Part shown: positions 9,401 to 36,400 of the stretch, in pieces
Position numbering within the stretch: position 1 is the stretch's first letter
How the letters are laid out: every line of letters starts with the position of its first letter
From: Octopus vulgaris
Lineage: Eukaryota
Direction: 5' to 3'
Assembly (NCBI GenBank): GCA_951406725.2
Contig: CATOCA020000001.1
Span: 5,580,001-5,644,000, forward strand
DNA length: 64,000 nt
Position numbers and translations under genes: made by a program
The notes under the pieces: generated by a model
The model's input: only the letters and a program-made list of their open reading frames with translations
What the model was told of the DNA's origin: nothing
The model's database searches: none

Positions 9401-12400
9401 TCACTACTCCCACTAAACATTGTTCTTGTCCAATTAGAAGACTTGTCACACTTCAAGATGGTTACTTTCTGCAACATAAAAATAATAAAGAATACTGAAT
9501 TATAAATGGTGACTAAATACCAATAAATCACCAAGGTTCTATCAGTAAATACCGACATCTTGTGTGTGATTAGAGTGATTAATGATTTATCAATATCTTC
9601 GGAAGCTGAAAATTATAAACAACTGCATTTATATGAATATAAGAGTGAGCCTTTATAAAATAGGAGACTCAATAAGAAAATCTCAACTGAGGGTTTAGGG
9701 ACCAACATTAGAGAGGGGACATCAAAAGGGTGGGAAACTTTGATTGATGTATAGATTAGTATTCCCGAGATTCAGTTCTTCTGAACCGTTTCAAATATTT
9801 TCACAGCAATAATGTGTGGACGACAAGTTTTATGTCGTTAATGAGATTTTGTGTGAATGTAGTGTGTTAATTTAGGACACGAGATATCACTTCCTGTTAG
9901 ACCTGATGTCACTTTCTGTTCGACCTGCTTTATTCAGGAGGATGAATGACATTGAAATATCTTCAGATATTTCCCCAAATCTGATTACATTCTGGAGAAC
10001 TGTGATGTGGGTAATTAAGATTAAAGATTACTAGTAGTAACCAATAACAAAGAGAGCAAGTGTATATATATATATACATACACATATATATATATATATA
10101 TATATATATATATATATATATATATATATATATATATATCCTGAAGTGGTGTTTCGTGTTTGGGGTTGGATATTCGATGCGCAACTTGGTTGACATTTGA
10201 ATTTAGCAGAAGATGAAACGAATATTGATTAGAGATCTCTGGAGGTGAAATGACGATGTTTTGTCATACATCTGGAACATACATAAGAAAACCAAAACGA
10301 AACTAAGAGAGAATCTGTTGTTAGGTGATAATTAGTTGTTAGGTGATAATTAAATTAGATAATTTCAGAATTGTTAGAATTATTGGGTGCCTTAAGAGAC
10401 AGAGAAGGGTTGTTAACTGTAGTTTATGCTGTTGTGGACCTAAATTTTGAATCGTTACATAGTAATACTCAAGAAATTATACAAATGGTCTCCAAAAACA
10501 TGATGGTCACCAGTTGACCAATGATGTTAGGATTGTCTAACAATAATAAAATATCGATTATTAATAATGATAAAGAATTTATTCTACAGTGTTTAAAACA
10601 TGAAATTGTTTATTTCAGAGGGTCCAAAGTCGTCAAAACCGGAAGTCCAGATGTTGGCAGAACCACCTGGTGAGTAGAAAGTAACTGTACCTAATTATGT
10701 TAGACCACATTACACCATAAAAAGCATAGGGTTGGTTTCCCGGTTCCCCCGGCTTATATATTCTTCCATGAATAGGACGCTAGTCATCATCATTTAGCGT
10801 CCACTTTCCATGCTCGCATGGGTTGGACGGTTCAACTGGGGTCTGGAAGTCAGAAGGCTGCACCGGGCCCAGTCTGATCTGTCAAAGTTTCTACGGCTGG
10901 ATGCCCTTCCTGACGCCAAACACTCCGTGAGTGTAGTGGGTGCTTTTTACGTGCTACCGGCACAGGTGCCAGACGAGGCTGGCAACAGCCACGATCGGAT
11001 GGTGCTTTTTACGTGCCATCGGCACAGAGGCCAGTCGGGGCGGCGCTGGCAACGGCCACGTTCGGATGGTTCTTTTACGTACCACCGGCACTGGTATCAC
11101 AGCTACAATTTCCATTGATGTTGATCGATTTTGATTTTGATTTAGTCCGCTGTAAAATTACTTATTTTCGCTAGCTGAGTGGACTGAAGTGTTGGACATA
11201 TTTTAATCACGTGATTTTGACTCAGAGGATTTAGTAACGAGGATTTATGTGGACTGGGCAGCCCTGATGTGCCTAACTTCCCCAGTGAATGATTTCCTTC
11301 AAACCGCTGAAAATGTGTTTGATACTCTGCATCAACACCGTTTCATAGCAAAGGCTCAAACTAGTCTCCTTATTCATCAGAAAGATGATCTGACATCAAA
11401 TCAATCAACAGTATTGTCAGACTTGGCAGAAAATTATAGTTTTGTAGTGAAGGATTCGGTGCAAGGGTTTCATCGGATCAACTCCCAGGCCAATATATTC
11501 ATCCATTTGCGATCTGTTATAAGACTGGTTCAAACCCACAATGCACTTCAATCTGTGTCATATCTGATTGTTTGAAACGTGACAACCCCATAGTGCATGC
11601 TTATATTACGAGGGCGATATCGCATATAAAGACAGAACTTCCGTTCATAAACCATCTCCTGTACTTCAGTGACGGTGCAGCCGACCAATACAAGAACTAG
11701 AGACACCAAACAAATCTCTGTCATCATGGACTTGTAGCAGAGTAGCGTTTTCCTCCATGTCCTGGGGAAAAAAGTACATGTGAGGAAATTTGTGGGATGG
11801 TGAAACCCACAGAAAGACATGTTCTCACGGATCCCAAGGTGTGTAGCTGAGTATGTGCAAGCATTCCAGGAATAATGTTCTTTTACGTCTGAAACGAAAA
11901 CAGTAGAACAGTGAAATTAATTGGCACAAGATCCCATCACTGCTTCATTCTTTCTTCAAGATCTGACCTTCTAATGAAAAGAATATCAGCCGATGACAAT
12001 ATTCCTCTTTTAGGTGAGGAGCAGGCAGCATTTCAGCTAGATATTTCAAAGTTACAGCCCTGAAAATATATTATGTACACGTGAAAATGATTGGTAAATT
12101 TGTTAATGTTGTATTAATTTCATGCATAAATCAAACGCACGACTTCTATCATGGCGTTCTTTGGTCCGTAGCAGTGCTTGATGGATGCTCTCATAGAACA
12201 TTATCTGCTTGGTTTGAGCAACTGAGAAGATGGAACAGAGAGCCAGGTTTTATAAGCTTGCCTTTGAGAATCTGCTCTCATCCAGAAGAGATTGTCATCG
12301 TTTATATCTAGTTACGTTTACAGTCAAAAACAATTTTCAGAGGCCTCTAAATATTATATTATGCCTTGAATATTGTCAATATTATTATCATACGTAGATC

Positions 12401-33400: not shown

Positions 33401-36400
33401 CGATGGTTTCTTGCTAATTATATATAGTTATTAATTACTACATTGTTCGAATAGCATTTGCTATCCATTTCGACATTTTGTACTCACACTTGTTGGTTTT
33501 AATGTAAATGATGGAGTCACGGTTTCCAAAGTGTCTTACATCTTGGTTTTAGTTCTGAACTAATTCTTATATTCAAATTAAATTATTTGACCAGGGTAAA
33601 GGATTTATTATCAGTATTTCCCACAGAAACGTTTAACAATATTCTGTAATTACTCATAGGACTGCCATACTATCAATTGTGCTGCGATACAATCATATTC
33701 ATTGTAGCAAACGTCACATGTCCTTTAGTTAAAATATATCCGACCTATATTGATATCTAACATTGTACTGTCGAGCAATGTGCTAGTTTACTTCTTATAT
33801 ACTTTATTAACAGGATAATTAATCAGTTATCATTCATAAATTCTCTTCCACTTATATGTCTGAAATGTACACTTAACCTCTTGTAGCCTCAACTAACATT
33901 TTACACCTTGTTACTATGTTTGTAATTTCAATGTTTTTCTTAGGGACCAGACAATATCCCTATAAACTGGAATTATTGGCCTCTATATTTTAGTAACTTC
34001 CATTGTGTCTCGGCTTCATTCCATTTAAAACATTATGTTGTGAAACACCTTTGTGTGTGACACTAATTACATGTATTTTATGAAGCATTGTAAAGATAAT
34101 TTTAATTAGCTGATTTCAATTAGCATTAGTAACAAATGTGGTAGAGTAGTGGTGATGGAGGAGGGTTTGAGTTGGATAAAATATTCCTTATAATGTTGTT
34201 CTTATATTAGCGTTGACATCAGATAAACAGTTTCTCTTGCTTAAACCTTACGACAGTGATTTAATGTTCGTAACTTGAAATTTGTTGGTACCTGGGTTTT
34301 CACTGTATTGAGGTCCACCACATTGATTGAGGGGACAACAAGGTAGGGCAAAACTTTGATGTATAAAAGAATGTTCTGTCATTTCAGATATTTCCTGCAA
34401 TGATGTATTAATAAGCAGTTATATGTAGTTGATGAGGTTTTGTACAATTGTACCTGGTTTTATGACTTCTGTTATTTTCTCTTCCACCTGTGTAAAACGA
34501 ATCAATGATTATCTTTAGAAAAATGCTGCCTTAGTTAGGAGACTTCAAATATTTCCCGAATTAGATAACATTCTGGTGAACTGTGATGACGGTAGTTAGA
34601 AATAAAGATTACCAGCAGCAATGTTTAACAAAAAGTGCAGGTGTCACACTCCAAGTGACATGTTATGTGTCTGAGGACCAACTTGTCTACCATTGAATGA
34701 AGCAGAAGAGGAAAAGAATGTTGCTTAGTGAAGTCTAAAGGTGAGAGGACAATGAAATGTCATATGTTTAGCGCAGAGATTAGAATGACAAGACAAAAAC
34801 TGAGAGAAAATAATTGTTATCAAGTGATAATTAAATGAGATAATTGCAGAATCATTAGATTGTGCAGCATATCTCAATAGAGAGAGGGGATTGAGGAAGG
34901 TTAGTCTATTTTTGTGGTTCTAAATATTGAACTATTACATGACATCTTAGAAAATGTTGACCGAAAGCATAGTGGTAACCTGTTGACCATTGATGAAAAG
35001 AATATCTTACAATAATGGAATTTAGGTTATTAATACAGTTAATGAAATTTTGCTATAAAATATAAAACTTGGGAATATTCATTTCAGAAATTGCACAATT
35101 TGTACAGGAGGCCACGAAAACATCACAGCAAGTTGGTGAGTATAAACCCACAGTACTTTATAGATTTTTAAAAATAAATTTGACCTTCATCTGAGCGTTT
35201 ATAGTTTATCAAAAGTACTGAGAGACGATTCTATCCCTAATTTCTAGTTGTAAAGTAATTCGATTAAATATATTACTGAAATTTCATAAAATCAAGTTTA
35301 GCATGGTTGGCAAAATGGATAACTTAGAAGACACGATAGATTTAATATTGTCATCTGATTTGACAATATTAAATGGGTTTGAAATGAACAACGAAACTAG
35401 GAATCAAATATTACAGCTTGGTGATTTCAGCAAGAAACGATGATACAGCTGAGTGAAAAAAACAAGAGCAAAGAGTACCCCTGTACAAAGTGTACACTTA
35501 CTGTACACAATTATGTTATGGGCAATACTTTGAGAGTTATGACATAAAGATGGAGTGGTTGATGAGTGGTGCAAGGTAGAAAAGGTTTACTTACCAAAGT
35601 ACGCTGATTCAGAACCGATCGATCAGTTCAGACCAATTTCAGCCTTGAATGTAGATGGCAAAATTTACATGATTTTACTTTCTAAGAGATTAGTTATATA
35701 TCTACAAAATAATGGTTATGGAACTGAAAGGCTCTAGAGGGATGGCATATCCGGGACTTGTGGGTATGTGGAACGAGCACTTTTAATCTGGTATGCATAC
35801 AAGACAGAAGCATACAAGACAGTATGGGACAATTGTAGAAGATATAAAAATAGTGACCTCACGATGTTGGTCACCAGTCGACCATTGATGAAAACAATGT
35901 CTCACAATAATAAATTATCGATAAACTTTATAAAAAGTTTAAAAGAATTACTAGAAATTATAAACCTTGGAAATATTTATTCCAGAGAGTCCAAAGCTGG
36001 AGGAGAAAGATCTTCTGATTGTGGCTCAGAATTTAGGAAAAAATTGGCGGCACGTTGGTGAGTATAGAATAAAAATATCTAATTAGTTTCTGTAAATATT
36101 ACTTTCACTTGAGCTATTTTATTTGTTAAAATGACTGAGATCAGGTTCCATTTCTAATTTCCAATTGATAATTCCATTAATTATATCGATATTACTGTAA
36201 TTTCATAAAATACCCACTGAGATTAACTTGGTTGGTAATAATGGATAAACTAGAAAATACAAATGGCGTTTAATATTATCTTTTGGAATAGGGAACTAAA
36301 ATATATTGTTTAAGGGTAAACAGGTGAGTGAATTTGTTTTACATTTTCTTTAGGTTCACTGTTAGTTTATTGTAATGAAGGACAAATACCAAAGTTAACA

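Follow-up and report, generated by a model that had tools for sequence, protein, structure and literature searches.

Organisation of the locus

The present analysis concerns a stretch of 64,000 nucleotides (nt) of Octopus vulgaris DNA (assembly GCA_951406725.2, contig CATOCA020000001.1, positions 5,580,001 to 5,644,000 of the forward strand), hereafter referred to as the window, which carries the 3' portion of a plus-strand gene, with ankyrin exons, one RING finger exon, ten small exons of the linker and two exons of the death domain. Further ankyrin exons are situated upstream of the window, and the gene's own 5' exons are outside it. The gene is an O. vulgaris ankyrin-RING-linker-death-domain paralog of an E3 ligase-like family expanded in Octopus, and its linker contains eight near-identical repeat exons, each encoding a candidate motif for binding of LC8 (DYNLL). 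The exons of the gene are the following:

3250..3459, plus strand: ankyrin-repeat exon, phase 0-0, Pfam Ank (E=1.9e-11), 100% match to residues 168-237 of O. vulgaris protein P0001
6031..6209, plus strand: last ankyrin-like exon, phase 0-2, 100% match to P0001 residues 238-297, weak Ank_4 match (E=0.011), donor gtaagt at 6210
9104..9246, plus strand: RING finger exon, phase 2-1, Pfam zf-C3HC4_3 (E=3.4e-9), 30 Octopus matches
10619..10669, plus strand: linker exon L0 of 51 nt, lacking a strict LC8 motif, its Q flanked by prolines
14447..14497, plus strand: repeat exon 1a, LC8-type motif, its peptide modelled in the LC8 groove
15353..15403, plus strand: repeat exon 1b, L and E variant
19412..19462, plus strand: repeat exon 2a, Q and E variant
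20318..20368, plus strand: repeat exon 2b, L and G variant, donor gtaagt
24368..24418, plus strand: repeat exon 3a, Q and E variant, last base G
25274..25324, plus strand: repeat exon 3b, Q and G variant, a/b mosaic
29304..29354, plus strand: repeat exon 4a, Q and E variant, contig joint 29354->35088, copy not uniquely assignable
30210..30260, plus strand: repeat exon 4b, L and G variant
35088..35135, plus strand: linker exon L9 of 48 nt, lacking a strict LC8 motif, with splice joints at both ends in three of four runs
35986..36057, plus strand: first death-domain exon, 72 nt, 68% match to the death-domain start of P0129, splice joints in contigs
38552..38753, plus strand: last death-domain exon, Pfam Death (E=5e-4), window frame stopping at 38721

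All eleven small exons reported in the initial annotation were located (nine of 51 nt, one of 48 nt and one of 72 nt, spanning 10619-36057), and what was stated there on their lengths, phase-1 symmetry, splice sites and three variable codons is confirmed. The acceptor reads tttcag in ten exons and ttccag in one, the donor gtgagt in ten and gtaagt in one, and every exon is in phase 1-1, with two nt of a split codon at its start and one at its end. The eight 51-nt repeats differ from each other solely at nt 7-8 (Q/L), 25 (E/G) and 51 (junction R/G). All 1024 of the 1024 subsets of the ten exons between the RING exon and the 72-nt exon are free of stops, and they yield 836 distinct peptides of 20 lengths. 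With an acceptor-context profile built from five of the exons, which makes the comparison partly circular, the eleven score 29.7-39.1; no further relic exons of the same type were found in the window, where the next profile site scores 5.2 on the plus strand and 9.2 on the minus strand. The same annotation had proposed a linker of eleven exons, any of which could be skipped without frameshift. Ten of them are linker; the 72-nt exon, which aligns with the beginning of the death domain in paralogs, is the first part of that domain and not a skippable piece of linker.

LC8-type motifs in the repeat exons

Each repeat encodes E-K-(E/G)-I-Q-T-E at positions -4 to +2 of the motif. The LC8/DYNLL consensus is [D/S]K-x-[T/V/I]-Q-[T/V]-[D/E], with proline being inhibitory at positions -4 to 0 (PMC3078936, in the part available to us). 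The repeats fit this consensus everywhere but at position -4, which is occupied by E instead of D or S, so that none is a strict full match; all eight match the core pattern [^P][KR][^P][TVI]Q[TV] and have no proline at positions -4 to 0, and the E/G variation among them sits on the free position of the consensus. When the repeats are shuffled, the core pattern is matched in 0.07-0.15% of the trials. The potential of the linker for tunable valency, raised in general terms in the earlier note, thus becomes concrete as one LC8-type motif per repeat.

The motif is shared by the family. Counting was carried out on the 34 of 58 paralog cluster representatives that have both a RING and a death domain, and gave 32 occurrences of the core motif in 1,994 linker residues versus none in 10,033 other residues, these 32 matches being homologous copies which evidence conservation and not independent origins; shuffled sequences contain 0.37 motifs on average and at most 3 in 2000 shuffles. 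Most paralog modules carry D at position -4, and the K-x-V-Q-T core is retained in relatives from O. bimaculoides. The window's own repeat was absent from the fetched proteins, the best having 9/16 identities, and LC8 was not found in viral contigs. Modules in which K takes the place of the anchor Q may represent non-binding spacer exons beside binding ones.

Splice joints and paralog isoforms

Contigs from four runs, belonging to four separate studies, were compared with positions 29000-39090 of the window. These runs are not recorded as RNA, and their RNA status rests on the GT..AG joints themselves. In three of the four runs such joints connect a repeat to L9, L9 to the first death-domain exon, and the first to the last death-domain exon, which establishes that linker exons are spliced into mRNA, either of this locus or of a near-identical paralog. 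In run X12, three contigs have a loose end before 29304 that equals the last 15 nt of a repeat, corresponding to a repeat-to-repeat splice observed in this one run. No joint bypassing L9 or the 72-nt exon is found among the joints listed, the RING exon and L0 being outside the compared segment. The placement of the repeat-to-L9 joint on copy 4a rather than 4b is no proof of skipping. In run X8 we considered two repeat types joining L9, one with a short side of 26 nt, and rejected this, as a variant near base 5 of L9 explains the lengths of both 26 and 42, a deduction which assumes 31-letter words.

Variable inclusion is observed in relatives. Twelve paralogous loci (10 from O. sinensis and 2 from O. 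bimaculoides), which were delimited by contig and series of accessions and picked for having isoforms, all have more than one linker in their RefSeq isoform sets, and in 6 of the 12 the strict motif count changes between isoforms. At one O. sinensis locus 10 linkers of 19-107 residues are distributed among 12 isoforms, and at one O. bimaculoides locus the isoforms contain 2, 3 or 4 motifs; the L0 peptide behaves as an in/out cassette in O. sinensis isoforms, and several modules are stacked in the paralog isoforms. Homologous linker modules are thus variably included in annotated paralog isoforms of two other Octopus species. As to the suggestion that alternative splicing tunes the linker, what stands is that the exons are spliced, in three of four runs, and that inclusion varies among paralog isoforms; what finds no support is a mutually exclusive choice of exons, given the repeat-to-repeat joint and the stacking of modules.

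Tandem units and the origin of the array

The repeat exons reside in a recent tandem array:

13986..33339, no strand assigned: four tandem units of ~4.95 kilobases (kb), starting at 13986, 18951, 23918 and 28853, the last one 449 nt short, 97% alike by self-BLAST

Every unit contains two repeat exons, forming an a/b pair 906 nt apart, along with pieces of dead transposons: a gypsy-like pol fragment (Pfam Integrase_H2C2, E=3.7e-10) and a fragment without Pfam match which we take to be derived from a long interspersed nuclear element (LINE). Pairwise divergence between the units amounts to 1.8-2.9%. In units this young, intact splice sites are to be expected: at a change of ~1% per site per unit, the probability that all 32 GT/AG bases stay unchanged by chance is P=0.72. 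The intactness of the sites in all eight copies, pointed out in the initial annotation, is accordingly not supported as a sign of selection.

Between positions -45 and +85 relative to the exon, the a copies agree with the b copies at 94-98%, compared with 74-80% in the flanks. This corresponds to a homogenised tract of ~180 nt centred on the exon, for example at 14402-14582 and at the equivalent positions of each repeat, and copies 1b and 3b are a/b mosaics. Such exon-centred homogenisation suggests either gene conversion or a constraint that may be splice-regulatory.

A deeper relationship emerges from the introns. The 100 nt upstream of L0, of the repeats, of L9 and of the first death-domain exon are 62-83% alike, and the intron upstream of the first death-domain exon is 71-75% like those of the linker exons versus 62% in the control, which consisted of unrelated 300-nt segments (mean 62%, maximum 66.5%). 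The start of the paralog modules resembles the death-domain exon. Since the upstream introns are shared and paralog modules start like the death-domain exon, the linker exons probably descend, as far as can be judged from sequence likeness, from the intron-exon unit of the first death-domain exon by repeated duplication. The intronic segments 12438-12910 (upstream of the first repeat) and 33887-34348 (upstream of L9) are 70% alike and are the trace of an older duplication of longer intron-exon units. The intron after L0 contains copies of a short interspersed repeat (10784-11102 and 13019-13963) with an internal 63-nt tandem array of 5.2 copies at 13179-13507.

The octopus family and its gene models

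The last exon of the window is 100% identical to the O. vulgaris model 'MIB2-like isoform X3' (P0001), and the matches to P0001 extend to both ankyrin exons and to intronic stretches of the window; this public model exits the RING exon early, traverses intronic pseudo-exons and omits all eleven small exons. In the paralog model P0002 the L9 peptide is identical (100%) and the last exon 98% identical. Two protein searches yielded 29 and 30 entries, every one of them an O. vulgaris or O. sinensis protein, and additional relatives were found in O. bimaculoides, ~51% identical to P0053. Full-length members have the order ankyrin-RING-linker-death domain by Pfam, which gave no domain match within the paralog linkers, between the RING and Death matches. 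A search with P0053 as full-length representative returned 7 family-like rows out of 150 besides the query, the rest being mostly generic ankyrin proteins; the PDB search with the same protein gave ankyrin matches only, and ESM Atlas gave no feature match, with structural rows at the level of the RING only.

The paralogs P0001-P0101 and P0251-P0276 are mosaic-like, with the same types of RING, linker and death-domain exons in differing combinations, and many of them lie on one 12-Mb O. vulgaris contig, a pattern suggestive of exon shuffling, or else of conversion, within a gene cluster. Some paralogs (P0037, P0047, P0049) have an optional insert of 16-17 residues ahead of the RING. At the 3' end of the gene, the homopolymer at 38699-38703 has five A in the window and six in the contigs of three of the four runs, the extra A lying behind 38703. 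The form with six A leads to a longer C-terminus as in P0002, with a stop near 38753, and the frame of the window truncates the death domain; the missing A is either an assembly base error, a truncating allele or a paralog difference.

Proposed role of the repeat exons

We hold it to be rather probable that each repeat exon supplies one LC8 site, and that splicing and copy number together set the valency and the spacing between RING and death domain. Under this proposal, a two-exon unit copied four times in recent times would have produced up to eight near-identical motifs at a spacing of 17 residues, within a family in which most linker exons would carry one LC8 motif. Because LC8 is a dimer with two grooves, each motif is predicted to let one LC8 dimer bridge two chains, and by analogy with known LC8 clients up to eight dimers could form a ladder holding two ligase molecules in register. 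RING and death domains are generally known to self-associate, and a ladder of this kind might favour the pairing of both while stiffening and lengthening the spacer between them, the number of rungs being set by cassette splicing and by gain or loss of exons between paralogs or alleles. Multivalent LC8 clients do form duplex ladders, the homogeneity and stiffness of which depend on motif strength and spacing (PMC10046861 and PMC12803091, in the parts available). We infer the effect of the ladder on ligase activity, the formation of the duplex and the skipping at this locus, and the binding of LC8 to the repeats is a model-based prediction. A more far-reaching version is tentative and in our view has somewhat less than an even chance: regulated splicing would pick the number of LC8 rungs, from none to eight, and thereby tune dimerisation, the distance from RING to death domain and the threshold for ubiquitin and death-domain signalling, the motif exons having originated in the death domain's own first helix, all within an undescribed expanded octopus family. 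MIB2 reportedly acts in the ubiquitylation of RIPK1/cFLIP; a role of the octopus gene in cell death or immunity is a lead and not a result.

The predicted binding was modelled with two LC8 chains and two copies of the exon 1a peptide (30 residues). The score obtained was 0.74, versus 0.01 for the best control; 51 of 78 solved complexes and 2 of 108 mismatched pairs attain the mark applied to it. Model runs share at least 94% of their contacts, with a partner predicted local distance difference test (pLDDT) value of 57, and the confident contacts involve peptide residues 7-17 and 19, Q15 being placed against LC8 residues 35/36/63/64. As LC8-peptide complexes have already been solved, the model indicates likeness to these complexes rather than binding.

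A number of observations weigh against the proposal, the homology of the 32 motif matches being one. As regards the model, 13 of the 30 peptide residues derive from intron read-through, the LC8 chain is a metagenome stand-in (PF01221) two residues away from a solved LC8, peptides lie outside the calibration of the tool, and the pass may reflect memory of solved LC8-peptide complexes. As regards the motif, 16 of 34 paralog linkers lack its strict form and the anchor Q is lost in many modules, K being found instead (VKK, VKT), so that LC8 sites are dispensable in many members of the family. Exon columns are variable at 4 of 102 positions and those of the dead transposon part of the units at 109 of 2656, so that conservation of the exons does not exceed that of the dead transposon in the same units. 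Concerning splicing, run X2 has no exon joint at all, which is no evidence of absence; no clear repeat-skipping joint is seen at the locus among the joints listed (a further 10 joints and 208 loose ends lying outside the list); the observed joints may come from the paralog P0002, which shares L9 and the last exon; and the RefSeq isoforms are automatic models which cross-mapping between paralogs could inflate.

The absence of excess conservation in the exons and the chance-expected intactness of their splice sites are what a neutral by-product would produce: an unstable, transposon-rich locus duplicates a 4.95-kb block, phase-symmetric exons are tolerated in a disordered linker, inclusion is constitutive or noisy, and the repeat number is functionless whether or not LC8 binds. 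The recent age of the units (1.8-2.9%) and their dead LINE and gypsy-like pieces agree with this, as does the frequent origin of symmetric exons in disordered regions by tandem duplication (PMC3632108, in the part available). We nevertheless judge it unlikely, although with an appreciable chance, because the core of the motif persists in divergent module types and in three species even as the residues around it change, and because the a/b likeness near the exon, set against that outside it, indicates an exon-centred conversion or constraint. Valency could also be fixed in the DNA, each allele or paralog splicing in all its modules and the isoform sets resulting from cross-mapped reads. There are indeed dozens of near-identical mosaic paralogs, P0002 has L9 and the last exon in common with the locus, and two contigs of run X8 run across the repeat-to-L9 joint; however, distinct modules occur in many in/out combinations at one locus, O. 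bimaculoides included, and in run X12 the contig joining L9 to the first death-domain exon has a depth of 244.7, above the 136.1 of the one joining a repeat to L9, which hints at a second upstream partner of L9, although the paralog may account for this. On this evidence we regard a DNA-fixed valency as improbable.

The count of four units may itself be partly an artefact of the assembly, fewer units or two haplotypes having been placed in tandem and base errors making them look distinct, a possibility compatible with the other readings and to which we assign no higher probability than to the preceding one. The differences between units comprise 83 transitions and 103 transversions, 164 of the 186 being singletons; 18 of the 20 contig letters that differ from unit 4 equal units 1-3; the window is short of the one homopolymer A which three of four runs carry; and the commonest shared pattern groups unit 1 with unit 3 and unit 2 with unit 4 (13 sites). 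On the other hand, substitutions prevail among the differences, the indel events numbering only 15, shared deletions of 10 and 16 nt included; units 1 and 3 (2.1%) are no closer than units 1 and 2 (1.8%), contigs collapse repeats to the majority letter, and the reality of both the a/b pair and the repeat-to-repeat joint is unaffected. A far more remote reading is a mutually exclusive choice of one repeat that diversifies recognition specificity, as in Dscam. Tandem homologous exons with few diagnostic changes would suit it, but it is largely refuted by the repeat-to-repeat joint, by the stacked modules of the paralogs and by the restriction of variability to three codons. The analogy with diversified invertebrate immune genes drawn in the initial annotation is weak, as near-identical copies alter number and spacing and not the recognition sequence.

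Relation to known systems

In having several short LC8 motifs in tandem within a linker, the octopus gene resembles the multivalent LC8 clients ASCIZ, Nup159 and KANK1 L2 (PMC10046861 and PMC12803091, as far as their available parts describe them), and the ladder that LC8 dimers would form on it is likewise expected to have a rigidity governed by the number and spacing of motifs. Unlike these, one motif corresponds to one exon, the copies are near-identical and recent, motif number varies by isoform or paralog, and the putative ladder is flanked by a RING and a death domain. Spacers differ too: ~9 residues separate the 8-residue motifs of the octopus gene, for which binding is predicted only, compared with 3-5 in KANK1 and Nup159. 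The closest LC8 precedent that we have seen is the loss of a single myosin 5a site through splicing (PMC3078936, in the available part). As in the tandem-duplicated symmetric cassette exons of disordered regions, the octopus exons are short, phase-symmetric, produced by internal tandem duplication and, in annotated paralog isoforms, alternatively spliced, and they differ from those in the accessible portion of PMC3632108 in that each one holds one copy of a specific motif, across a large family.

Databases label the family 'MIB2-like', and the succession of ankyrin repeats and a C3HC4_3-type RING is indeed similar to that of Mind bomb (MIB1/MIB2). Unlike MIB1/MIB2, the octopus family has a single RING instead of 2-3, followed by a linker and a death domain, and Pfam gave no match for Mib/HERC2, ZZ or mib repeats in the apparently full-length P0053, P0031, P0092, P0251, P0061, P0012 and P0230, or in P0001. 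Mind bomb proteins are defined by an N-terminal mib/herc2-ZZ-mib/herc2 arrangement, mib repeats and several C-terminal RINGs (PMC3979679, in the part available); because none of these mib/herc2, ZZ or mib-repeat domains is present, nor any additional RING, the octopus family is MIB-like in its ankyrin-RING part only. A large octopus family of E3 and death-domain proteins is thus mislabelled as MIB2-like, and at the present locus the public model omits every linker exon.

Arrays of the Dscam type consist of duplicated exons within one gene and undergo mutually exclusive splicing. The octopus array is likewise a set of duplicated exons inside one gene, but its repeats are additive and near-identical, and what changes is their number and not their specificity. 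Multivalent LC8 clients and symmetric tandem cassette exons are each already known, and what is new is an exon-per-site array in an expanded ankyrin-RING-death-domain family: neither such an LC8 array nor this family is described in the literature searched, which excluded supplements, those of genome papers possibly listing the expansion, and a term search of PMC9068888 gave no description of the family. Engineered versions of ASCIZ, Nup159 and KANK1 are currently used to investigate in what way multivalent LC8 assemblies are governed by the number and spacing of motifs. Should the proposal be true, the octopus family would offer a naturally occurring series in which 0-8 sites lie at even spacing between two signalling domains, with splicing and duplication as the sources of variation.

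Other features of the window

The intron before the RING exon contains a decayed element at 6901-8415, with inverted ends of at least 210 nt that are 92% alike (in a scan starting at 6901), which is presumably Tc1/mariner-like. Further downstream, a 4.9-kb (AGAA)n array at 46799-51734 and several (CTTT)n arrays of opposite orientation at 56386-61787 together form long imperfect inverted repeats.

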